From Gammaproteobacteria bacterium (GTDB taxonomy: Bacteria > Pseudomonadota > Gammaproteobacteria > Arenicellales > JAJDZL01): 64,000 bases of DNA. The stretch covers positions 492 through 64,491 of the forward strand of contig JAJDXD010000138.1 of NCBI GenBank assembly GCA_022823405.1, written 5' to 3'. The notes beneath the pieces are model-generated. The model saw only the letters and a list, made by a program, of their open reading frames with translations, had not been told where the DNA came from and made no database searches. Positions 2,142 to 56,381 of this stretch are shown piece after piece. The position numbers were made by a program, and so were the translations under genes. The number at the start of each line of letters is the position of its first letter. Position 1 is the stretch's first letter.

Positions 2142-2618
2142 ATGCGCCCTTTTTCTTCGTCAGGAACGACTTACAGTCATACGTCAATCGTCGACTTATC
2201 TTGTAAAGAGATGTTTCATATCGTAAATGATGTCGAGTCATATCCCGAATTTATTAGTTTCTGCAATGCCGGCAGGCTGGACCAGATGCATGCAGACGGA
2301 TATACCGCGAGTATCGAATTTCATATAGGTAAGTTTAGTAAACACATCACAACTCGTAATTTCATTTCACCGTATTCATCGGTTTCAATGAAACTGGTAT
2401 CAGGTCCATTCAAGCGGATGAACGGCACATGGACTTTTTCGGAACTTGGGGAGAATAAATGCCAAGTCAACCTGGAAGTAGAGTACGAATTTTCAAATCG
2501 AGCAACCGCGCTTGCTCTAGGCCCATTTACAAAAACCCTGCCAAAAGTAATGCTTGAAAGTTTTAAAAGCGAAGCCAGACGCAGATGTATGAATCAGCAA
2601 TTGGCCAATCGGAATTGA
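2142..2618 (+). CDS. ratA: SRPBCC/CoQ-binding family protein RatA (YfjG-like)
   Basis: MFHIVNDVESYPEFISFC...KLVSGPFKRMNGTWTF aligns by eye with E. coli RatA (MYQLVNDVQSYPQFLPGC...LVDGPFKKLIGGWKF). It holds the conserved position next to smpB. Confidence 0.8.
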   Translation: MRPFSSSGTTYSHTSIVDLSCKEMFHIVNDVESYPEFISFCNAGRLDQMHADGYTASIEFHIGKFSKHITTRNFISPYSSVSMKLVSGPFKRMNGTWTFSELGENKCQVNLEVEYEFSNRATALALGPFTKTLPKVMLESFKSEARRRCMNQQLANRN

Positions 2619-2628
2619 CAATTTCAAG

Positions 2629-2958
2629 ATGAAAAATTCAACTCAACTTCAAACCGGCGGTAAGCGCATTTCAGTCGAAGTCGTTTTTGCGGGAGAATCC
2701 AGGCAAGAAATTGTCCACCTTGAACTTCCGGGACAAGTTACCGCACGACAAGCGGTTAATCAGACTAGTCTCAGCACCGACTATCCAGAGTTTGATTTTT
2801 CTTCTGCCCCGCTCGGGGTCTTCGGAACAAAAGTTCCAGACAATTTTCTGCTTGCTGACCGGGATCGGGTCGAAATCTATCGTCCCCTGCAACAGACACC
2901 TCAGGAATCCCGGCGTCGACGTGTTACTTTAGCAAGGAAACCAACTGATCAAAAGTAA
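2629..2958 (+). CDS. RnfH family ubiquitin-like protein (YfjF/RatB-like)
   Basis: 109 aa with ISVEVVFA...FGTKVPDNFLLADRDRVEIYRPL, typical of the RnfH family. It lies immediately downstream of ratA, as in enterics. Confidence 0.8.
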   Translation: MKNSTQLQTGGKRISVEVVFAGESRQEIVHLELPGQVTARQAVNQTSLSTDYPEFDFSSAPLGVFGTKVPDNFLLADRDRVEIYRPLQQTPQESRRRRVTLARKPTDQK

Positions 2959-2961
2959 AGA

Positions 2962-4605
2962 TCAGCTGTTTTCTTCTATATGACGGGCGCGCAAATCGTT
3001 CCGCTTGACTTTGCCAGTCGTGGTTAAGGGTAGATCATCGATATACTCAATCATCCTTGGGTACTCATAGGCCGCCAATCGCTGTTTGACAGAGTTCTGA
3101 ATGTCATCCGTCAGTGATTCAGACGGTACTTCACCTGGTTTCAAGACGATATATGCCTTGACCGCTTCACCTCGCAACTCATCAGGTACGCCAATAACTG
3201 CGACTTGTGCGATAGCTGAGTGCTTAATGAGACAGTCTTCAATTTCTCCAGGCCCAATCCTGTATCCAGCACTCGAAATAACATCATCCTTGCGGCCCAC
3301 AAACCATATGTATCCCTCATCATCTTTGTAGCCCATATCGCCTGTTGCCCACCACTTACCAATAAACTTATCACGGGTGGCTTTTTCGTTTTTCCAATAA
3401 CCAGCTACCATAACTGGATCATCGCGATCCGCAGCCAGTTCACCGATTTCACCTGCGGGTAAAGCAGTTCCATTTTCATCAACCGGTTCGACTCGATGCC
3501 CAGGATAACTTTTGCCTATTGATCCGGGTCGAACTTCCATAACTTCTGCACAATTTCCGCAGATGTAATTGAATTCGGTCTGTGCCCACATTTCATTGAT
3601 TTCAATTCCGAAAGCTTCCTTTCCCCAAAGGAAAAGTTCAGATCCGAGTGATTCTCCCGCAGACATGATTGTGCGCATTTGAATATCAAACTTTAGTCTG
3701 AAATTTCCCAGCTGACGCAGCATTTTTAGCGCCGTTGGTGGGATAAACCCATTTCGAACCTGGTACTTTTCCATGAGATGACAGGCTTTTTCGGCATCGA
3801 ACTTACCGCCATCATAACCAAGTACCGGCACTCCATAGTAGAGCGAAGGAATCAATGCATCTAGCAATCCACCGGTCCATGCCCAATCAGCCGGTGTCCA
3901 GAAAAGATCATATTCCTGAGGAAAGAAATTGTGAGACATTTCAAACCCAGTCAAATTGCCGATTAGACAGCGATGGGGAGCAAGCGCACCTTTTGGTGGC
4001 CCTGTCGTTCCGGACGTATAAACAAGATAGGCTGGATCTTCGGAAAGCGTGTTGACGATTTCAAAGCAATCACTCGCTTTTTCAAGCAAACTCCAAAATC
4101 CTCTGTCGCTATCGCAATCAATGATTGTTTCAAGTGCTGGCAGCTCATCACGAATGGATTCAATCAAGTCAACGTGTGCAGAATCCGTAATCACCACCTT
4201 GGTGCCGCTGTTATTCAAACGGTAGCCCACTGCTTCCGGACCAAACAGTACAGAAAGTGGAAGCGCTATTGCGCCAATTTTGTAAATTGCCAAGTGGCTG
4301 ATAACGGTCTCTGAACGTTGCGAGAGAACAATGCCTACGCGGTCTCCCTTTTCAACGCCATAATGCTGCAAGACATTAGCAAGCTGATTTGACAGTCGCT
4401 TTAGATCCGAAAATGTGAATTGGCTCGTTTCACCCGCTTTGTTTTCACAATAGATCGCAACCGAATCACCTGAATGCTCGGCGTGTCGGTCGCAAGTCAC
4501 ATGAGCGATATTGAAATGCTGAGGGATGTTCCATCGAAATCGCTTGTAAATTGCATCCCAGTTGCCCCATTCCGGCCTTATCAATCTAAATCTGTCGTTA
4601 TTCAT
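2962..4605 (-). CDS. AMP-forming acyl-CoA synthetase (medium-chain/MMPA-CoA-ligase-like)
   Basis: 547 aa with the adenylate-forming motifs YTSGTTGPPKG, GEIGEL and TGDMGYKDDEGYIWFVGRKDD, plus a C-terminal GKVKR. The start overlaps the upstream gene stop by 1 nt. Confidence 0.85.
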   Translation of the reverse strand: MNNDRFRLIRPEWGNWDAIYKRFRWNIPQHFNIAHVTCDRHAEHSGDSVAIYCENKAGETSQFTFSDLKRLSNQLANVLQHYGVEKGDRVGIVLSQRSETVISHLAIYKIGAIALPLSVLFGPEAVGYRLNNSGTKVVITDSAHVDLIESIRDELPALETIIDCDSDRGFWSLLEKASDCFEIVNTLSEDPAYLVYTSGTTGPPKGALAPHRCLIGNLTGFEMSHNFFPQEYDLFWTPADWAWTGGLLDALIPSLYYGVPVLGYDGGKFDAEKACHLMEKYQVRNGFIPPTALKMLRQLGNFRLKFDIQMRTIMSAGESLGSELFLWGKEAFGIEINEMWAQTEFNYICGNCAEVMEVRPGSIGKSYPGHRVEPVDENGTALPAGEIGELAADRDDPVMVAGYWKNEKATRDKFIGKWWATGDMGYKDDEGYIWFVGRKDDVISSAGYRIGPGEIEDCLIKHSAIAQVAVIGVPDELRGEAVKAYIVLKPGEVPSESLTDDIQNSVKQRLAAYEYPRMIEYIDDLPLTTTGKVKRNDLRARHIEENS

Positions 4606-5909
4606 TACCAGTACCGAATGGCTTGAGTGTACATGCTTTCCAGATCTTCTTCAGTCACTTCGCATGGAGCATTACTCAACAGACGCTGCTGCATAAAGGC
4701 TCCTTGAGCCAACTCTCCGATGTCATTCTCGTCGTAGCCAACTTCTGAAATCCCGTTTGGAATTCCAGTGGCTTTCATCATAGTCTTCAGATGTTCGCCC
4801 AGTGCTTCACCCGCCTCTAGTTCAGTGGCACCGCCAACATCGGCTGACAGTAGTTTGGCACCTTCCAAATGTCGCCACGGACAGGATGATGCGGTAAACC
4901 GAAAAGCGGCTGGCGCATTAACTACGACAGAAATTCCGTGCGGAACCAGTGGGTGGTTCGAAGGATAACCTTCGGGAAAATAGTCCTTCACCAGTCCTGC
5001 GACCGAGTAGGACATCCCGTGTGGGACGTGAACACCGCTATTGCCAAACGCTATTCCTGCGAGTGTTGCAGCCAGCATCATTCCATGACGCGCTTCTTTA
5101 TCACTGGCATCCTCAACGGCTCGAACCAAGTACTTACCAGTCAGCCAAAGTGCTTGCCGACAGCCCATATCACTATACGGATTGGCCCCCTGACTCAGTG
5201 GGCGTACACCATTAGCGGGTCGCTTTCGTGCAGTATAGGGTCTAGCAGTATATGACTCCAACGCGTGACACACCACATCAAAACCGCTTGCGGCAACTAC
5301 GTTCCCTGGTAAAGATTCTGTGGTATTGGGATCGACAACAGCTCGTGTTGGCTTTAATTTTGAAGAAGCAATTCCTGTCTTGACGCGCTTTTCGAGAAAA
5401 TCAAAAACCGCAATACCCGTACACTCGCTTCCAGTTCCCGAAGTAGTTGGACAGGCAATATGAGGCGTCAAATTGCCAGGAACGGGCAATCCTTCACCGA
5501 CCGGTGCGTTGACATAATTCAAGAAATCAGCCGGATAAGTACTGTATAGATTCGCTGCCTTGCAGGTATCAATGACTGAGCCGCCACCAATCGAAATAAA
5601 CCCATCAAACCGTCCTTCAATGGCAAATCTGGTTGCTTCCTTAAACGACCTGTCTGTCGGTTCGATACTCACCTCATCGTAGATTTCGTACTCAATTCCA
5701 GCTCCGTGAAGTCCCTGTATAGCAGAATGTACGAGTTCCAGATTCTTGACAACTGGGTCAGTAAACAATGCAACTCTTGTCATCCCGAGTTCTGTCGCAT
5801 CGTAATGCAACTCCTCAAGTGCATCGGGGCCATATTTGATCGAACTGAAATCTACCGCGAAAACAGACTCCTGCCCCGCTGCATACTGATAATGATGACA
5901 GCAGTTCAT
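4605..5909 (-). CDS. Iron-containing alcohol dehydrogenase, hydroxyacid-oxoacid transhydrogenase (ADHFE1)-like
   Basis: 434 aa. IGGGSVIDTCKAANLYSTYPADFLNYVNAPVG...PTTSGTGSE...GFDVVCHALESYT closely follows the HOT/ADHFE1 pattern as I remember it. Confidence 0.8.
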   Translation of the reverse strand: MNCCHHYQYAAGQESVFAVDFSSIKYGPDALEELHYDATELGMTRVALFTDPVVKNLELVHSAIQGLHGAGIEYEIYDEVSIEPTDRSFKEATRFAIEGRFDGFISIGGGSVIDTCKAANLYSTYPADFLNYVNAPVGEGLPVPGNLTPHIACPTTSGTGSECTGIAVFDFLEKRVKTGIASSKLKPTRAVVDPNTTESLPGNVVAASGFDVVCHALESYTARPYTARKRPANGVRPLSQGANPYSDMGCRQALWLTGKYLVRAVEDASDKEARHGMMLAATLAGIAFGNSGVHVPHGMSYSVAGLVKDYFPEGYPSNHPLVPHGISVVVNAPAAFRFTASSCPWRHLEGAKLLSADVGGATELEAGEALGEHLKTMMKATGIPNGISEVGYDENDIGELAQGAFMQQRLLSNAPCEVTEEDLESMYTQAIRYW

Positions 5910-5941
5910 TGAAAGTCAATCAGCTCCGTAATTGCTTAATT

Positions 5942-7712
<1,771 letters not shown>

Positions 7713-48260: not shown

Positions 48261-50249
48261 ATGCACAGAAAAATTCTTGTCACGAGCGCTTTACCATACG
48301 CAAATGGCCCGATTCATCTCGGGCACATGGTTGAGTACATCCAGACAGATATTTGGGTTCGATTTCAGAGAATGAATGGCAATCTGTGTTATTTTGTATG
48401 CGCGGACGATGCACACGGCACGCCGATAATGCTACGCGCCAGAAGTGAAAATCTGACGCCTGAACAGTTGATTCAGCACTATCAGGAAGCACATGAGACA
48501 GATTTTGCTGATTTCAATATTTCTTTCGATAACTACCACTCGACTCATTCTCCTGAGAATCGAGAACTTGCCGAGTACATTTACCTGCAACTGAAAAAAG
48601 GTGGTCACATTCGTCGAAAGGTGATTAATCAGGCTTACGACCCGGGTGAAAATATTTTCTTGCCCGACAGATTTGTCAAGGGAACCTGCCCGCGCTGCGG
48701 TGCTGAAGATCAATATGGTGACAGTTGCGAAAAATGCGGTGCAACCTATACACCTTCCGACCTGAAAAATCCAGTTTCGGTACTTTCCGGTCTACCACCC
48801 GAACACCGTGAATCTGAACATCTGTTTGTGCGTTTAAGCAACTTTAATGACATGCTGCAGGACTGGGTTGGTAATGAAATTTCACAAAGTGAGGCTCGCA
48901 ACAAACTGAAAGAATGGTTTGATGTGGGCTTGACGGACTGGGATATTTCTCGTGATGCCCCTTATTTCGGATTCCGGATTCCGGAAGAAGAGAACAAATA
49001 TTTTTACGTTTGGCTGGATGCTCCCATCGGGTATATGGCCAGTTTCAAGAATTTTTGCGACCGTGAAGGCATTGATTTCGATGCCTTCTGGAAAGATGAG
49101 GAGCAGACTGAACTGTACAACTTTATCGGTAAGGACATTTTGTATTTTCATGCCTTGTTTTGGCCGGCCATGCTTCATGGTGCCGGTTTTCGCAGACCGA
49201 CCGATGTCTACTCGCATGGCTTCCTGACCGTCAATGGCAAGAAAATGTCCAAGTCACGCGGAACCTTTATTATGGCCCGCACTTATCTAGACCATCTGAA
49301 CCCGGAATATCTGAGATATTACTACGCCGCTAAACTGAACGAAAAAATTGAAGACCTTGATCTTAATCTTGAGGATTTCGTTCAGCGCATTAATTCGGAT
49401 TTGGTTGGTAAAGTCGTCAATATCGCCAGTCGCTGTGCGAAGTTCATATCAAATCGGTTTGAAGGCAGACTCAGCACCGAACTGGATCACCCTGAACTGT
49501 ATCAAGAACTGGCAGATGCGCTTTCTTCCATCTCAGAATTCTATGAGAATCGCGCTTTCAGCAAGGCTATGCGGAAGATTATGGCTCTTGCCGACAAAGC
49601 CAATCAGTATGTCAATGATGCCCAACCATGGGTTATCGCGAAAGATCCCGCACAGGTGAATCGGTTGCACAATGTGTGTACGCAAGGCATCAACATGTTT
49701 CGCGTACTCATTTACTATCTGGCACCCGTGGTGCCGGACTTGGCTCGTCGCAGTGGTGAATTCTTGAATGATTCGATTGATCAGCTTGAAAAAGTTCAAA
49801 CGCCATTGCTTGATCATCAGATTTCACCGTATGTCCACCTGATGACACGGATTCAACAAAAGGATGTCGATGGAATGATTGATCAATCCATGGAAAAGGA
49901 AGCGGCCCTTGATACGAGTCACGACAACATTATTTCTATAGAAGATTTTGCCAAGGTTGATCTTCGTACCGCGTTGATTATTGAAGCATCGGATGTTGAG
50001 GATTCAAACAAACTGATTCGCCTGAAGGTTGATCTCGGTACCGAAACCAGGCAGGTATTTGCTGGAATCAAGGGATATTATTCACCAGATGAGTTAGTCG
50101 GTAGGAAGGTTGTGGTGGTGCGCAACCTTAAACCGAGGAAAATGAAATTCGGCACTTCCGAAGGTATGATTCTGGCGGCTGGTGATGATGATGGCCTGTG
50201 GCTGATCGACCCCGGCAAGCAGGTTGGTCTTGGTGTACCTGTCAATTGA
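48261..50249 (+). CDS. metG: Methionyl-tRNA synthetase
   Basis: The HIGH motif (ANGPIHLGH), KMSKS, the zinc knuckle CPRCG...CEKCG, and a C-terminal tRNA-binding domain. Confidence 0.95.
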
Positions 50250-50905
50250 ACTCGCACTCGAATTCAGATTTAACCGTCTCAGACATTGACCAGTGTTTGC
50301 CACAGACACAGTGCACGGTTTGTGGATATCCGGGCTGTCTTGAATACGCTAATGCGTTGTTCAACAACGAAGCACAAATCAACCGCTGTCCTCCGGGTGG
50401 TGCGGTTACCCTGTCCGCGCTGGCTAGTCAATTAAATCATCCAGAAATTCCGCTGGCAGATGATTGTGCCCCTTACGCGGGTCGCTTCGTTGCTGAGATT
50501 ATTGAATCGGAGTGCATTGGATGCACCCTTTGCATTGACCCTTGTCCTGTCGATGCCATCATTGGGGCATCACGACAGATGCACAGTGTATTGACTGATG
50601 ATTGTACTGGTTGCGAGTTGTGCCTCAAATTTTGCCCGGTCGATTGTATCGTAATGGTCAAACATTCCGATCATCGGGAAGGTGAAACCTGGCCCGAATT
50701 TTTGGATTCAGAAGTCAATCGCTGGAGACTTCTGGCATCCCGTCACCGATCGCGGATGCAGTTTCAGCAAGATTCAACGGATGATGTCCAACCTGAAGAA
50801 ATAAAGCAGGAAATTCGAAAAGCAGTTAATCGCGAGCGGACAAAGCGGTGGAAGTCAAAAAAGCGCGCCACACGTCTTTTACACTCTCAAGCTTCAAGTA
50901 AATGA
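50246..50905 (+). CDS. RnfB-related soluble ferredoxin (4Fe-4S clusters)
   Basis: [14 protein letters not shown]...NRCPPGG followed by two CxxCxxCxxxCP motifs. It lies between metG and nth, as rnfB does in Pseudomonas. I place the start at TTG 50246, overlapping the metG stop; the ORF track uses GTG 50198. Confidence 0.7.
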
Positions 50906-51561
50906 ACGCTAAGAAAAGATTCGAAATTTTTGCAAGGCTAAAAGCCGCTAATCCGAACCCAACGACCGAACTGAATTACCGCAGCAACTTTGAACTGCTG
51001 ATCGCGGTCGTTCTGTCCGCCCAGTCAACCGACAAGGCCGTTAATCAGGCTACCAACAAACTGTTTACCGCAGCACCTGATCCTCAATCAATGCTGGACC
51101 TGGGCATTGATGGACTCCGTGAAATGATAAAGTCAATTGGTCTATTCAACAGTAAGGCTAAGAATATTCTCAGCTTGTGCAAAATTTTGATCGATAAGCA
51201 CGATGGAAATATTCCGTCCAATCGAGTCGATCTGGAAGCACTGCCTGGGGTGGGACGAAAAACTGCAAATGTCATTTTGAATACTGCGTTTGGTCAACCG
51301 ACTATCGCGGTTGACACACATATCTTTCGAATTTCAAACCGAATTGGTCTGGCACCCGGCAAGAATGTCATCGAAGTGGAACAGAATTTGTTGAAATGGG
51401 TACCAAGAGAGTTTATGGTTGATGCCCACCACTGGCTGATTCTTCACGGTCGGTACACCTGCACTGCAAAAAAGCCAAATTGCTACTCATGCGTCATTTT
51501 CGACTTGTGTGAATTTTCTGGAAAGCAGGAATATGCTGACATACAACTTCAAAAGGCATAA
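50902..51561 (+). CDS. nth: Endonuclease III
   Basis: The HhH-GPD motif (LPGVGRKTANVIL), catalytic-region DTH, and a C-terminal Fe-S cluster Cx6CxxCx5C. Confidence 0.95.
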   Translation: MNAKKRFEIFARLKAANPNPTTELNYRSNFELLIAVVLSAQSTDKAVNQATNKLFTAAPDPQSMLDLGIDGLREMIKSIGLFNSKAKNILSLCKILIDKHDGNIPSNRVDLEALPGVGRKTANVILNTAFGQPTIAVDTHIFRISNRIGLAPGKNVIEVEQNLLKWVPREFMVDAHHWLILHGRYTCTAKKPNCYSCVIFDLCEFSGKQEYADIQLQKA

Positions 51562-51571
51562 AGGCGAGTGA

Positions 51572-52009
51572 ATGACGACTGAAACCAATGAACGTCAGTT
51601 CCTGTTTGACATTTGGTACAAAGTTCAGAACAAAGAAAAGCTCAATGCTACTGAAAAGATGATCGGCAAAATCATCGAAATGCACCCAGAAGTGGACAGT
51701 GTGCTATCAAATCCTGAAGTTTTTGCTGACCATCAATTCGACATTGACGAACCGGACCCTTTTTCTCACCTTGGTCTACACGCCATCGTAATGGAAATGG
51801 TGAGCAATGACTCACCAAGCGGTATTCGCTCCATCTATGATCAGCGCGTAAATCAAAGAGGAGATAAACATGAGGCTCAACACGACCTGATGCTGGCTGT
51901 ATTTGACTGGCTAGTCGTCTATGCGGAAGATGAAATGAATGAAGAGCAGGAAAGACAGTTTATCGCTCAACTGCGTGAACAATTCAGTCAGGCAGTCACT
52001 GATAATTGA
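51572..52009 (+). CDS. DUF1841 family protein
   Basis: FLFDIWYK...IIEMHPE...DPFSHLGLHAIVMEM...DKHEAQHDLM matches the DUF1841 pattern as I recall it. Confidence 0.65.
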   Translation: MTTETNERQFLFDIWYKVQNKEKLNATEKMIGKIIEMHPEVDSVLSNPEVFADHQFDIDEPDPFSHLGLHAIVMEMVSNDSPSGIRSIYDQRVNQRGDKHEAQHDLMLAVFDWLVVYAEDEMNEEQERQFIAQLREQFSQAVTDN

Positions 52010-52097
52010 TCAGCAATGAAGATACTTCAATCTCTATTCAACACCATTACCACATTCTGTGGTGATAATTATGCTTTTCATTCCATTCACTTAAATC

Positions 52098-52123
52098 CAG
52101 ATTGATTGTTTGAAACAAATCTG
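52098..52123. promoter_or_regulatory. Imperfect inverted repeat upstream of the bufferin-like operon
   Basis: In CAGATTgatTGTTTgAAACAAATCTG, the outer arms CAGATT/AATCTG and the inner arms TGTTT/AAACA pair. It lies about 77-100 nt upstream of ATG 52200. Confidence 0.2.
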
Positions 52124-52199
52124 ACAAATCGCAGGTCAAAGTAAGTCACCCGTTTTAGGGGTATTACTTTTTATTCAGTAACTTTTGGAGGACTGACCT

Positions 52200-52460
52200 A
52201 TGAAGTCTCAGAAACTTCTTCTCGCTACAGCGATTAGCGGTGCAATCGCTCTCGGATCATTGACCCTTTCAACCGTCGCGAATGCGGGCGAAGAAAAGGA
52301 AAAATGCTATGGTGTAGCCAAAGCCGGGCACAATGATTGTCAAACCGCCAACAGCTCCTGCGCTGGCACTTCAACCATGGACGATCAGGGTGATGCATTT
52401 GTTCTTCTCCCCAAGGGATTGTGCGGAAAACTCACCGGCGGCAGTTTAGAATCGTCGTAG
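52200..52460 (+). CDS. bufA: DUF2282 (BufA1-type) secreted RiPP precursor peptide
   Basis: GGAGG lies upstream of the ATG. The Sec signal ends in TVANA/GE. The core [25 protein letters not shown]...[11 protein letters not shown] has four Cys spaced as in DUF2282. Confidence 0.8.
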
Positions 52461-52493: not shown

Positions 52494-53345
52494 ATGGTTA
52501 CGCACCCGATTCCAGCAGATTCCGTTGGAATCGGACTGCGTGGCGATCACTGTGAATACGTCGCAGTCAATAAGCCGTCAGTTGACTGGTTTGAAATTCA
52601 CAGCGAAAATTATTTTGGACAAGGTGGTGCTCCACACGATTGGTTAAGACAAATCCGTCAAGACTACAACCTCAGCTTTCATGGCGTCGGGCTTTCACTG
52701 GGCTCAACAGATGACCTGAATGTAAAACACCTGGAACGGCTCAAGGAATTGATTCACATTTACGAACCGGGTCTGGTGTCAGAACACTTGTCGTGGAGTT
52801 CAATTGATGGGATCTATCTTCACGACCTTTTGCCACTGCCATTCACAAAAGAAACAATCGTACATCTCGCAAGTCGCATCGAACGGGTTCAGGATATGTT
52901 AGGTCGCACTATCCTAGTCGAAAATGCGTCGACCTATCTTGAGTTCTCGCATTCCGAAATGAGTGAATGGGAGTTCATTAACGAAATCACCCGCCTAAGT
53001 GGTTGTCAATTATTGCTTGACATCAATAACGTATATGTAAATGCCTGCAATCACCAGTTTGATCCGATTGAATTTTTTTCCAAGATATCTCCTAGCGTAG
53101 TTGGTGAGATTCACTTGGCAGGACACACCGTGAAGAATTTGCCGGAAGGTACAATTCGTATTGACACTCATGACCAGAGAGTCTGCGACGATGTCTGGCA
53201 TCTATATGAAGCCGTTGCAAATCGCTTTCATGCGGCACCCACTCTGATTGAATGGGATAAGGAACTACCGGAATTTTCCGTTCTGATGGATGAAGCAAAT
53301 ATCGCTAGAAGCTACCGCCAGGAGATGCAAAGTGCAGCTGCGTGA
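52494..53345 (+). CDS. bufB: DUF692 / MNIO (multinuclear non-heme iron oxidase), BufB-like
   Basis: GIGLR...VDWFEIHSENYF...SFHGVGLSLGS...VSEHLSW...ENASTYL...HLAGH is the UPF0276/DUF692 signature. Confidence 0.85.
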   Translation: MVTHPIPADSVGIGLRGDHCEYVAVNKPSVDWFEIHSENYFGQGGAPHDWLRQIRQDYNLSFHGVGLSLGSTDDLNVKHLERLKELIHIYEPGLVSEHLSWSSIDGIYLHDLLPLPFTKETIVHLASRIERVQDMLGRTILVENASTYLEFSHSEMSEWEFINEITRLSGCQLLLDINNVYVNACNHQFDPIEFFSKISPSVVGEIHLAGHTVKNLPEGTIRIDTHDQRVCDDVWHLYEAVANRFHAAPTLIEWDKELPEFSVLMDEANIARSYRQEMQSAAA

Positions 53346-54120
53346 GTTGCAAAGTCAATTTAGTGCTGAAATTCTTTGCGGAGAAAATACAAGCATACAA
53401 ACACTTGTTGAACAGCGCGGTTTTCAAGCCAAACAGCGAATTAGTGTTTATCGGAATAACATATTTGCAACCCTGACTGAAACACTATCCAACATATTTC
53501 CTGTTAGCTGTGCAATGGTTGGTGAAGAGTTCTTCAATTCAATGGCGCGAATCTATATTCGATCCCATACACCAGACAGTGGGAATCTGCATGACTTTGG
53601 CGAACACCTGCCGTCTTTTATTGAGTCCATGCCCGAACTCAGTAACTATCCGTATTTGTCTGCACTCGCCGAAATTGACTGGGCCTGCCATCAGGCGTTT
53701 CACTCGGTATCAGCGACTGCTCTTGATATCAGTAGTCTGGGTGATTTTTCACCCGACAACTACGAAGACCTGCAGTTTGAGTTTCACCCCTCAATACACA
53801 CAGTCAAGTCCAAATATCCGATATTTGATATTTGGGACTTCGCGACGTCGAATGGCCACGCTGACACCATACCGAACATCAAATCTGAAGGGCAACAAGT
53901 TCTGATTCATCGCTCCAAAAGTGGTGTAAAAGTTGTAAACATCGAAGACGAACTATTTCAAATGATCAAATCTCTTCGAGAGCATAAAACGCTCGGAGCG
54001 ACTTTTACCTCAACTCTTGATTTAAATCCCGAATACAATTTGAAAGAAGGATTGAATCGCCTGTTTTCGTTTGGCGTAGTATCCACAATTACGGTTAAGC
54101 GTAGCATCGTTCATCAATAA
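53332..54120 (+). CDS. bufC: DUF2063 protein, BufC-like partner of the MNIO
   Basis: LRELQSQFSAEIL...RISVYRNNIFATLTETLSNIFPV...GEEFF is the DUF2063 N-terminal pattern. GTG 53332 is preceded by AGGAGA at 7-nt spacing. The ORF track's alternative is ATG 53290. Confidence 0.75.
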   Translation: MQLRELQSQFSAEILCGENTSIQTLVEQRGFQAKQRISVYRNNIFATLTETLSNIFPVSCAMVGEEFFNSMARIYIRSHTPDSGNLHDFGEHLPSFIESMPELSNYPYLSALAEIDWACHQAFHSVSATALDISSLGDFSPDNYEDLQFEFHPSIHTVKSKYPIFDIWDFATSNGHADTIPNIKSEGQQVLIHRSKSGVKVVNIEDELFQMIKSLREHKTLGATFTSTLDLNPEYNLKEGLNRLFSFGVVSTITVKRSIVHQ

Positions 54121-54147: not shown

Positions 54148-54588
54148 ATGGCTGCAATCATTCAACTTTATCGAAAAATACTCTGTCTGCTAAATTGTGG
54201 GGCACCGATTGCTGATCTGTTGCTGCGACTTTGGGTGGCAAATGTCTTTTGGAAATCTGGACTGACCAAAATAGCCAACATAGATACCACCATGTATCTT
54301 TTTGAATATGAATACGCTGTGCCAATTGTGCCATTTGAATTGGCAGCTTACATGGCGATTTTTGCGGAACTGGTCTTTCCAGTGCTTTTGGTACTTGGGC
54401 TGGCAACTCGAGCAACTGCCGCAGCACTTTTTGTTTTTAATGCCATGGCCGTTATATCGTATCCGTCATTGAATCCCGCTGGGATAGTTCAGCATCAAGT
54501 GTGGGGCATCATGCTATTGATCCCGCTGTTTCATGGAGCCGGGGCAATTTCACTTGACCACTTCATAAACAAGCGGTTTCCCAAGTAG
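54148..54588 (+). CDS. DoxX family membrane protein
   Basis: 146 aa with four hydrophobic segments and LLRLWVANVFWKSGLTKI, typical of DoxX. It is the fourth gene of gig/buf-type operons. Confidence 0.8.
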   Translation: MAAIIQLYRKILCLLNCGAPIADLLLRLWVANVFWKSGLTKIANIDTTMYLFEYEYAVPIVPFELAAYMAIFAELVFPVLLVLGLATRATAAALFVFNAMAVISYPSLNPAGIVQHQVWGIMLLIPLFHGAGAISLDHFINKRFPK

Positions 54589-55631
54589 TGCCTTCAATGG
54601 ACTTGCTTAACGACACAATTCCAGTCGTAACTGACACATTCAATGATCTGTCGCTAGATTCCAGCAGTTCAATCAAGCGCTGGAATTTTTTCTCCACACT
54701 CCATGCAAATGGAATCAGAGGGCTAACTCGCGCCAAAATTCGGGAAGTTCAGGTCAATGTAGGTAAACTCTGCAATCAGGCGTGTAATCACTGTCACGTG
54801 GATGCAGGCCCCAATCGAACTGAAATCATGACTTGGGAAATCATGGAAAAAATCGCCCGCTGGTGTGTCGATAACCAGGTCGAATCAGTCGATATAACCG
54901 GTGGAGCACCGGAACTCAACCCGAATTTCAGACGTTTCGCCAACACCTGTCTCGCGAACAACATGTTAGTTACCTCGCGATGCAACCTGACAGTGTTGCT
55001 GATCGATGGGCAAGAGGACCTCGCCGCCTGGTATGCCGAGCGCCGAGTGAAACTGATCTGTTCGCTGCCCTGTTATACCAAGGACAATCTCGAGCAGCAA
55101 CGTGGTAAAGGTACTTTTGGACAGAGTATCAGTGCCCTGCAAATTTTGAACAAGCACGGCTACGGCATCCTTCCACACCTGGAGCTAGACCTCGTTTATA
55201 ACCCCAACGGAGCATTTCTGCCACCGGCTCAGGATTCGTTGGAAGCAACTTACAAAGTTCGTCTTGAAGAAGATTTCGGTATTCATTTCAACCGACTTTA
55301 CACGCTTACGAATTTACCAATCAGCCGCTTCCGACACTATCTGAAACGAACGGGGGAATATGACGGCTACATGAACCTTCTGCAGCAGAAATTTAATCCG
55401 CAGACAGTACCAAACCTGATGTGTCGACACATCATCAGCGTAGACTGGTTAGGGAGAATCTACGACTGTGACTTCAATCAGATGCTGGATATTCCAGCTG
55501 GCTGGCACAAGCCTAGATATCTCTGGGAACAAGATCTTGATCAGTTCACGAATGACCGTATTGCAGTCGATTCCCATTGCTTTGGGTGTACAGCTGGTGC
55601 GGGAAGCAGTTGCGGCGGTTCACTCGCGTAA
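54588..55631 (+). CDS. Radical SAM / Cys-rich domain protein, ArsS-like (TIGR04167-type, Cys form)
   Basis: The radical SAM motif CNQACNHCHV, then ITGGAPELNP, LVYNP, YDCDFNQ, and a C-terminal HCFGCTAGAGSSCGGSL. GTG 54588 overlaps the DoxX stop by 1 nt; an alternative ATG lies at 54597. Confidence 0.8.
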   Translation: MPSMDLLNDTIPVVTDTFNDLSLDSSSSIKRWNFFSTLHANGIRGLTRAKIREVQVNVGKLCNQACNHCHVDAGPNRTEIMTWEIMEKIARWCVDNQVESVDITGGAPELNPNFRRFANTCLANNMLVTSRCNLTVLLIDGQEDLAAWYAERRVKLICSLPCYTKDNLEQQRGKGTFGQSISALQILNKHGYGILPHLELDLVYNPNGAFLPPAQDSLEATYKVRLEEDFGIHFNRLYTLTNLPISRFRHYLKRTGEYDGYMNLLQQKFNPQTVPNLMCRHIISVDWLGRIYDCDFNQMLDIPAGWHKPRYLWEQDLDQFTNDRIAVDSHCFGCTAGAGSSCGGSLA

Positions 55632-55640
55632 TTCTTTAAA

Positions 55641-56381
55641 CTATTTGACCAATCGCTGTCGATACGCTTCAAAAGCAACCACCCCAACCGCAACAGAAAC
55701 GTTAAGACTTGAAATTTTGCCCCGCATGGGTATGCAGGCGAGCTGATCACATCGCTTTCTGGTTCCAACCCGCATTCCAGTCTCTTCCGTGCCGAATACC
55801 AGCACGCATTTTTCCGATAGATCTAAATCGTAGACAGATTCGGTCGCATCGTCTTCGAGTCCCACGACAAAGTATTCCTGCGACTTCAACTCATCCAGCG
55901 TACGAATGAGATTTGATGCGCGGTAAATCGGGGTGGTTTCCACCGCTCCCGCCGCTGTTCGAGAAACGGTCGCTGTAAGCGCGCAGCCGCGACTGCGGGG
56001 TAGAATGACGCCTCCCGCACCAGCAGCGTTGGCACTTCGAAAGCAGGCACCAAGATTACGCGGATCCATAATTCCATCCAAAGCAACAAGCAGATTTGAA
56101 TCCGAAAGCGTACCAAGCCATTCCGATAAACTTTTACCGTGCGTGTCACCGACCCGAAAATGGCTGAGAATAATAACTCCCTGATGTTTGTTTCCTTCAG
56201 AGATCTCAGCCAGATCACTGTTTGGCAAACGTTTGATTTTGATCCGGCGACTTCTTGCAATTTGCTCAATTTCCCGCAAGCGACGATCTTGTCGTTTGGC
56301 ACTTAATAACACCGTTTCAATATCGTCTGCGCGGTTTTTCAGCATCGCGATGGCGACATGTATGCCGTAATGTTTTTGCAT
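55641..56381 (-). CDS. rlmB: 23S rRNA (guanosine-2'-O)-methyltransferase RlmB (SpoU/TrmH family)
   Basis: The SpoU motifs (LDGIMDPRNLGACFRSA, LVFGTEETG, IPMRGKISSLNVSVA), and its position downstream of rnr. Confidence 0.85.
   Translation of the reverse strand: MQKHYGIHVAIAMLKNRADDIETVLLSAKRQDRRLREIEQIARSRRIKIKRLPNSDLAEISEGNKHQGVIILSHFRVGDTHGKSLSEWLGTLSDSNLLVALDGIMDPRNLGACFRSANAAGAGGVILPRSRGCALTATVSRTAAGAVETTPIYRASNLIRTLDELKSQEYFVVGLEDDATESVYDLDLSEKCVLVFGTEETGMRVGTRKRCDQLACIPMRGKISSLNVSVAVGVVAFEAYRQRLVK

Follow-up and report, generated by a model that had tools for sequence, protein, structure and literature searches.

An ArsS-family radical SAM gene ends a lineage-specific extended bufferin operon in Arenicellales-type Gammaproteobacteria

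We analyzed a 64,000-nucleotide (nt) stretch of DNA from a gammaproteobacterium of the Arenicellales (contig JAJDXD010000138.1 of assembly GCA_022823405.1, positions 492 to 64,491, hereafter the window), in which a gene for an ArsS-family enzyme of the radical S-adenosylmethionine (SAM) type (the rSAM gene) directly follows the genes for a bufferin. Bufferins are copper-buffering peptides of the RiPP kind, made on ribosomes and modified after translation. We find that the arrangement is a lineage-specific extended bufferin operon. The explanation that we favor, and regard as rather probable, is that the enzyme is encoded by the last gene of a bufA-bufB-bufC-doxX-rSAM string, that this order is inherited, that the enzyme acts on a small-molecule substrate of its own and not on the precursor peptide BufA, and that it is probably co-expressed with that peptide. 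The genes of the string are as follows.

52200..52460, + strand: bufA, a BufA1-type (DUF2282) bufferin precursor of 86 amino acids (aa) with a signal peptide and four Cys (PF10048, 81.1 bits)
[quoted passage not shown]
53332..54120, + strand: bufC, the DUF2063/HvfC-type partner (PF09836, 82.3 bits; GTG 53332 as called on L001)
54148..54588, + strand: doxX (bufD), a DoxX-family membrane protein (PF07681, 67.4 bits)
54597..55631, + strand: the rSAM gene, ArsS-family (TIGR04167) radical SAM/DUF3641 enzyme of 344 aa from its ATG, last gene of the co-directional string

The enzyme and the bufferin genes before it

The open reading frame (ORF) at the end of the string is a bona fide, ordinary ArsS-family radical SAM enzyme, in agreement with the original prediction made from the letters of the window. 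It matches TIGR04167 with 421 bits (cutoff 300, E 2.4e-126), residues 46-346 covering positions 2-303 of the 303 in the model, and it matches PF12345/DUF3641 over residues 211-345 with 183.8 bits and PF04055 (Radical_SAM) with 42.7 bits. The CX3CX2C motif, CNQACNHC, corresponds to C59-NQA-C63-NH-C66 when numbered from the ATG and is invariant in 27 aligned homologues. The C-terminus is a Cys-rich DUF3641 domain that ends in the HCFGCTAGAGSSCGGSLA tail, and the HCFGCTAGAGSSCGG tail of the protein is conserved across the aligned homologues. Among 73 family members from other contexts, 95 positions show conservation of at least 90%, and enzymes linked to bufferin genes keep 94 of these; the sole change, F145W, is common to the sister clade that keeps glycosyltransferase partners. 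The sequence of the window enzyme shows no departure from those of family members that lie beside ArsM or arsenosugar glycosyltransferases.

Characterized ArsS catalyzes the radical adenosylation of dimethylarsenite to 5'-deoxy-5'-dimethylarsinoyl-adenosine (DDMAA) (PMC13598754). The window enzyme shares with ArsS the full-length match, the CX3CX2C motif, the DUF3641 domain with its CFGCTAGxGSSCGG tail and the 94 of 95 conserved positions, and by analogy the radical adenosylation of a small metalloid substrate is its most likely activity. As in the rest of the family, a [4Fe-4S] cluster would be bound through C59, C63 and C66, SAM would be cleaved reductively, and the resulting 5'-deoxyadenosyl group would be attached to a small soft-metalloid substrate. 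What differs from ArsS is the setting: the window enzyme is the terminal gene product of a bufferin operon, with no arsM, TIGR04282, TIGR04283 or TIGR04169 gene nearby (64-kb window and flanks of nine loci). Furthermore, the window member of this (seleno)protein family has no selenocysteine; its stop codon is TAA and the tail position is Cys. A sequence search of the Protein Data Bank with the enzyme gave weak YydG matches alone and no solved ArsS structure.

The start of the gene was originally placed at GTG 54588, which overlaps the doxX TAG by 1 nt and yields 347 aa. That overlap and the in-frame ATG at 54597 are both present. The longer protein is less well supported; the N-termini of 26 homologues align to the ATG, and on an independent contig with an identical rSAM protein the gene is called from the ATG, so that the protein most likely has 344 aa. 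Sequence comparison thus makes ATG 54597 the more likely start, and this start leaves a gap of 8 nt after doxX.

The bufferin-type operon that had been recognized upstream was matched in all four genes (DUF2282, BufB, DUF2063 and DoxX). The four Cys of the BufA core align with those of 29 other BufA sequences, and the window DoxX nests among DoxX proteins of bufABCD operons in a neighbor-joining tree. Against more specific NCBIfam models the two partner proteins fall short: BufC scores 38.8 with the HvfC model (cutoff 142), and DoxX scores 61.9 with the HvfX family model (cutoff 80). An alternative in-frame ATG for bufC lies at 53290. Within 53290-53345, bufB and bufC overlap by 14 nt when bufC starts at GTG 53332, or by 56 nt when it starts at ATG 53290, an arrangement that hints at translational coupling between the MNIO enzyme and BufC.

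The window shares its DUF2282 precursor, BufB, DUF2063 protein and DoxX, in canonical order, with the bufferin 1/gig operon (PMC11626156, PMC12452194), but differs from it by the fifth co-directional gene, of the ArsS family, 8 nt after doxX. Neither of these papers describes such a gene. According to the survey of MNIO clusters, the bufferin core consists of precursor, MNIO, DUF2063 and DoxX, and other conserved genes occur "in extremely low proportions" (PMC12452194); that survey makes no mention of ArsS, DUF3641 or "arsen-". The suspicion that a radical SAM partner lies outside the described architecture was therefore well founded.

Conservation and separability of the two modules

We compared about 170 related loci from genomes and metagenomes; the flanking ORFs were clustered, and recurrent clusters were named by Pfam and NCBIfam. 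The adjacency of bufferin genes and rSAM is not unique to one genome. At least nine Arenicellales-type genomes have the five-gene string, at 64-92% identity, and so do two more lineages known from metagenomes (L124, L126). It is carried by a relative that is 92% identical (L002), by two chromosomes of Arenicellales metagenome-assembled genomes (MAGs) at 70% and 67% identity (L003, L004) and by five complete genomes at 64-71% (L163-L167). The string is kept despite rearrangement upstream of it, by a transposase in L163 and an ABC transporter in L167. In L163 (1-2809) the metG-nth-DUF1841 block is replaced by Transposase_29, a gene with a SocA_Panacea domain and small ORFs, with bufABCD-rSAM intact.

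The gene orders below indicate that the rSAM gene always occupies one spot within a conserved block of the core genome, and that bufABC and doxX are variable inserts before it.

L010: rnfB-like gene, nth, rSAM
L008 and L009: metG, rnfB-like gene, nth, FIST, rSAM
L011: metG, rnfB-like gene, nth, unclassified ORF, rSAM
L005-L007: ...nth, FIST, DUF1841, doxX, rSAM, then convergent TIGR04282 and TIGR04283
Arenicellales-type loci: ...nth, DUF1841, bufABC, doxX, rSAM

In the rSAM tree the related loci form one clade, with the rSAM-only loci basal and the Arenicellales-type and doxX-bearing branches as sisters. In the DoxX tree, the sequences from doxX-rSAM loci that lack bufABC form a single clade within the buf-linked DoxX, and the Arenicellales-type DoxX are sister to those of bufferin operons without rSAM. 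The rSAM and DoxX trees were both built by neighbor-joining without support values.

A metagenome scan seeded with seven DoxX sequences returned 80 loci and was unbiased as to rSAM. Among those with both flanks readable, bufABC and rSAM occur together in 3 loci (L119, L124, L126), bufABC occurs without rSAM in 30, rSAM without bufABC in 5, and neither in 10. The presence of bufABC therefore does not raise the chance of finding rSAM (odds ratio 0.2, Fisher p 0.09, kinship ignored), and with 3 of 33 bufferin operons carrying it, the rSAM gene is no regular component of bufferin clusters. In L119, two opposite-strand genes (TANGO2 family and HpcH aldolase) stand between doxX and rSAM, so that co-transcription is impossible there.

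The simplest history would be that a bufABCD cassette landed upstream of a resident rSAM gene, that bufABC was later deleted in one sub-lineage, and that rSAM is absent from other lineages with DUF1841-bufABCD, such as L094 and L084. In this gammaproteobacterial clade rSAM would hold an old, fixed position downstream of metG, the rnfB-like gene and nth; the cassette would have been placed before it in the common ancestor of the Arenicellales-type and sister lineages, and both modules would later have been lost independently in different descendants.

What usually accompanies the enzyme was read from a scan of reference genomes with alignment of the rSAM homologues, which gave 80 loci from at least 599 stretches, a sample and no census. 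Of the 71 sampled loci outside the clade of the window, 53 have at least one recognizable partner within 5 kb: an ArsM-type methyltransferase near 22, the "arsenosugar biosynthesis glycosyltransferases" TIGR04282/TIGR04283 (so named by NCBIfam) near 23, an FAD disulfide reductase near 16, the TIGR04169 peroxidase-like protein near 12 and a PHO4 transporter near 6. No partner of these types is seen at 18, and a locally orphan member of the family is therefore not rare.

In sister-clade orthologues (61-65% identical), rSAM is followed by convergent TIGR04282 and TIGR04283. Exactly this three-gene set is present with the closest orthologues from outside the Arenicellales (L005-L007, L110, L124, L142, L159 and others), at the same chromosomal position of rSAM, whereas the window and its close relatives have convergent genes for a SpoU methylase and an RNase in place of both transferase genes. 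This sets the 3' boundary of the unit in the window, and the same boundary is found in L002-L003 and L163-L167.

55641..56381, - strand: SpoU/TrmH-type RNA methyltransferase (PF00588 and PF08032), convergent, 9 nt from the rSAM stop, and then an RNase II/R-type gene

The prediction that the window holds no arsM or other ars gene was borne out. By Pfam, the other approximately 40 ORFs of the window are housekeeping only: a branched-chain amino-acid ABC transporter, aconitase, ligA, smc, zipA, trpBA, asd and leuB, as well as aroC, dcd, apbC, metG, nth, RNase R, alaS and others. The annotated ORFs of the 64 kb include no gene for ars functions, selenium or copper resistance, and tblastn of the window with ArsM-type, TIGR04282, TIGR04283, TIGR04169, FAD-reductase and PHO4 neighbors gave no match. 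The composition profile is flat (guanine-cytosine content 0.42-0.50), and recent horizontal insertion of the bufferin genes is therefore not indicated.

Upstream of the bufferin genes, at 50198-51561 of the window and downstream of metG, a stand-alone RnfB-like Fe-S protein (FeS and Fer4_21) is translationally coupled to nth, and this pair is kept across all related loci. The DUF1841 gene (51572-52009) adjoins bufA, likewise in L084, L092, L094 and L123 (in L123 the two are convergent); the conservation of this pairing equals that of the buf-rSAM adjacency, and it occurs with or without the rSAM gene. To our knowledge, no function of DUF1841 is known. Just upstream of bufA in L119 (~2830-3080) and L094 (~1860-2030) we read the C-terminus of another BufA-like peptide (...DAWVY.PKGTC...GGTL...), suggesting tandem duplicated precursor genes. 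The order in L112 is bufA-doxX-bufB-bufC (bufA 4557-4820, doxX 5001-5378, bufB 5407-6222, bufC 6215-6811), and in L131 and L132 doxX is on the strand opposite to bufABC.

The rSAM locus itself is heterogeneous within the Arenicellales, since L064 and L008 differ. In L064, a MAG named Arenicellales, the rSAM gene (2331-3236) is of a second, distant ArsS-family type, 51% identical to that of the window, with an FAD disulfide reductase gene immediately upstream; L008, labelled Arenicellales, has FIST-rSAM without buf or doxX. In L166 (7272-8257), two extra co-directional genes follow rSAM, a 100-aa ORF without family match and a methyltransferase, and neither has a counterpart in the window or in the other loci. 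The methyltransferase (228 aa, class-I SAM type, weak TehB/DVU_1556 similarity) was considered as a metalloid methylase on account of its weak TehB match and was rejected, being a generic class-I enzyme below all cutoffs and present in L166 only.

A putative promoter at the head of the string

We searched the region before bufA and the spaces between the genes for elements that control the transcription of the string. The upstream region of bufA holds the following elements.

52046..52066, + strand: terminator-like hairpin between DUF1841 (stop 52009) and bufA, found by consensus scan, with a weak T-run
52112..52140, + strand: motif GAAAC-N18-GTCAAA, resembling promoters of extracytoplasmic function (ECF)/sigma-E type, with the -35 element at 52112-52116 and the -10 element at 52135-52140
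52187..52192, + strand: Shine-Dalgarno sequence of bufA, GGAGGA, read directly and conserved in the upstream alignment

The ECF-like motif sits 60 nt before the bufA ATG in the alignment of upstream regions, where its general form is GAAAC-N16-20-GTC(A/T)xA. Its two elements are conserved in L002, L003, L004, L163, L164, L166 and L126, with a diverged spacer. On neither strand does the window contain a second match; the expectation for the whole 128 kb is 0.92. The consensus of sigma-E/AlgU-type ECF promoters is GGAACTT-N16-TCAAA. Upstream of bufA, the motif was found in 8 of 11 bufferin operons that contain rSAM and in 1 of 28 that lack it, off-register in that one. Upstream of doxX it was found in 7 of 11 doxX-rSAM loci without bufABC, and as a variant in L142; two of the four contigs without a match (L147, L153) have upstream sequence too short to judge. 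The background is 0.02 per region, and the Fisher p value is 1e-6 for loci that are not independent. By sequence, the promoter-like element heads whichever string ends in rSAM and appears to have stayed in place when bufABC was lost. The hairpin at 52046..52066 is a possible end of the upstream transcription unit.

Of 68 rSAM-only loci, 3 have the motif directly upstream of rSAM, about as many as chance would give. The good-looking site before rSAM in L008 was set aside on these grounds.

The genes downstream of the motif lie close together. Between doxX and rSAM lie 7-12 nt in L001-L004, the four Arenicellales-type loci for which the gap was measured; in most of the remaining doxX-rSAM loci, whether or not they carry bufABC, the distance is 8-53 nt. 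From bufA to the start of rSAM, consensus scans detected neither a sigma-70-like site nor a terminator. A sigma-70 promoter scan gave 3 promoter-like sites versus 6.9 in shuffles, none of them at the doxX-rSAM junction. The expectation that rSAM is carried on the buf transcript is likely correct, given the short gaps, the lack of an internal promoter or terminator in these scans and the ECF-like motif at the head. One stress-responsive transcript from bufA to rSAM is thus plausible on sequence grounds, with the motif as its best available support. The five-gene unit would be transcribed from this single ECF/sigma-E-like promoter, and because a probable promoter of that type heads the unit, rSAM is likely co-expressed with the copper-buffering peptide. 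In Arenicellales-type genomes, such expression would take place under envelope or metal stress.

A side observation concerns L153 (751-1011), where doxX and rSAM are separated by a very GC-rich spacer of 261 nt with a hairpin-rich fold of ~-148 kcal/mol; it may be an inserted repeat or an element like a miniature inverted-repeat transposable element (MITE). Upstream of bufA in the rSAM-lacking L088, L106, L107 and L154 we found clear promoters of sigma-54 type, TGGCAC-N5-TTGC. The window operon is putatively ECF/sigma-E-like, whereas several related operons are of sigma-54 type; to judge from these motifs, the sigma factor that controls bufferin operons seems to differ from lineage to lineage.

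Competing explanations and what the arrangement means

The explanation that we favor, a family-typical enzyme with its own small-molecule substrate in an inherited operon, has points that weigh against it. Neither the window nor the flanks of 6-10 kb around nine Arenicellales-type loci contain an arsM or arsenosugar glycosyltransferase gene. The promoter is putative, a consensus match combined with phylogenetic footprinting, and the resemblance of the motif at 52112-52140 to the sigma-E/AlgU-type consensus is one that we presume. The order of gains and losses is tentative, since the neighbor-joining trees have no support values and DoxX is short. Moreover, several loci are near-identical, so that the locus counts are not phylogenetically independent.

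One alternative holds that DoxX (BufD) functions together with the ArsS-family enzyme as a separate module of two genes, on whose promoter the bufferin genes are passengers; DoxX would support the enzyme through quinone- or thiol-linked redox or by handling its substrate or product at the membrane. Among loci whose upstream flank is readable, 8 retain the pair without bufABC (L005-L007, L110, L130, L142, L143, L159), the distance from doxX to rSAM is still small where it was measured in buf-less loci (8-53 nt), and the ECF-like motif is kept directly upstream of doxX in buf-less loci. Throughout the buf-less loci doxX is intact, and it is 69-93% identical where rSAM is 79-90% identical, a sign of purifying selection. 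Caulobacter needs BufD neither to modify its bufferin nor to be protected from copper (PMC11626156), and the retention of doxX with promoter and rSAM is noteworthy for this reason. The pair is confined, however, to this clade; no DoxX lies beside the other 75 rSAM-seeded loci, including the basal L008-L011, and 30 of 33 related bufferin operons with readable flanks have DoxX without rSAM. Since the buf-less DoxX form one nested clade, a single deletion of bufABC that spared doxX, followed by vertical inheritance, explains the pattern. We regard an independent DoxX-rSAM module as unlikely.

Also unlikely, in our estimate, is that the adjacency is incidental, with rSAM transcribed from an unrecognized promoter of its own inside doxX and with neither shared regulation nor biological meaning. 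The position of rSAM downstream of nth is older than the buf cassette, buf and rSAM are physically uncoupled in L119, the surrounding block is housekeeping core genome of uniform composition, and the 18 of 71 family members elsewhere without recognizable partners nearby fit the same picture. Against it, an intergenic promoter would not fit into gaps of 7-12 nt, and the last 400 nt of doxX contain no promoter-like site. The sole conserved promoter-like element heads the string and moved to doxX when bufABC was lost. Furthermore, the breaks in L163 and L167 fall upstream of bufA and not between doxX and rSAM.

A bolder version, which we consider improbable, takes the conserved unit to be ECF promoter-doxX-rSAM and proposes that DoxX and the enzyme make up a membrane-linked stress module that produces or detoxifies an organo-metalloid, with the bufferin genes carried along; less likely still, the enzyme would adenosylate or otherwise modify the bufferin.

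The original prediction had offered a tailoring enzyme for the Cys-rich peptide as one of two roles, and several observations speak for it. The rSAM gene closes the operon, tightly coupled to it, in at least nine genomes as well as in L124 and L126. Radical SAM enzymes are reportedly at work in thio(seleno)oxazole RiPPs, a precedent attributed to Lewis et al. 2021. The likeness to these systems and their SbtM-type maturases (TIGR04082) is that of a radical SAM gene beside a thiooxazole-forming system, and this analogy motivates the tailoring idea. The window enzyme differs from SbtM in domain architecture, in lacking a RiPP recognition element (RRE) and in the absence of co-variation with the precursor.

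We therefore compared the enzyme with peptide maturases. Models of peptide-maturase families score at best 15-34 bits with it (cutoffs 265-850), SbtM itself 25 bits (cutoff 350), and no SPASM signature was found in it. The AlphaFold2 (AF2) model has a mean predicted local distance difference test (pLDDT) score of 75.8, with residues 1-26 disordered and a radical SAM core from approximately residue 45, and it contains no RRE or extra N-terminal domain. A Foldseek search with this model gave generic radical SAM matches at template modeling (TM) scores of ~0.5. The RiPP and peptide enzymes SkfB, SuiB, anSME and EpeE are among them, but the matches to the small-molecule enzymes BlsE, DesII, MoaA and viperin are equally good, and the search does not separate the two kinds.

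On the side of the peptide, the BufA cores (EKCYG..KAG.NDCQT...CAG...C) are indistinguishable between operons with and without rSAM. There is no obligate co-occurrence or co-variation of rSAM with the precursor, as either module is found alone at the same chromosomal locus: rSAM persists where bufABC is absent and is missing from 30 of 33 related bufferin operons. BufB with BufC is enough to reconstitute bufferin modification, and E. coli needs no more than bufABCD for protection from copper (PMC11626156). Together with the 94 of 95 family-conserved positions unchanged in the enzyme, these results make a peptide-tailoring role unlikely, and a new tailoring enzyme that acts on a Cys or thiooxazole of BufA before export is very improbable.

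The second role that had been proposed, metalloid handling co-regulated with a metal-stress peptide, is compatible with our results and draws some support from the ECF-like motif; the expectation of new biology fares less well, as the arrangement is a lineage-specific variant of an operon and not clearly more. In the explanation that we favor, the enzyme would act on its own small-molecule substrate, not on BufA, while sharing the expression of the peptide.

The locus carries a caution: its junction of 1 or 8 nt with a RiPP operon gave the impression of a new tailoring enzyme, and comparison across loci indicates separable modules with a gene order that was inherited. It also adds to the bufferins a variant operon that is kept across an order-level clade and has no description in the MNIO and bufferin papers (PMC12452194, PMC11626156). 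With the apparent ECF/sigma-E-type promoter, an ArsS-family enzyme would belong to a regulon for metal or envelope stress. The main point of interest is the survival of doxX with promoter and rSAM after the loss of bufABC, a natural experiment on the role of BufD/DoxX. If a DoxX-rSAM module does exist, it would offer a first way into the function of the enigmatic DoxX that bufferin operons carry, and it would link copper buffering to metalloid chemistry.

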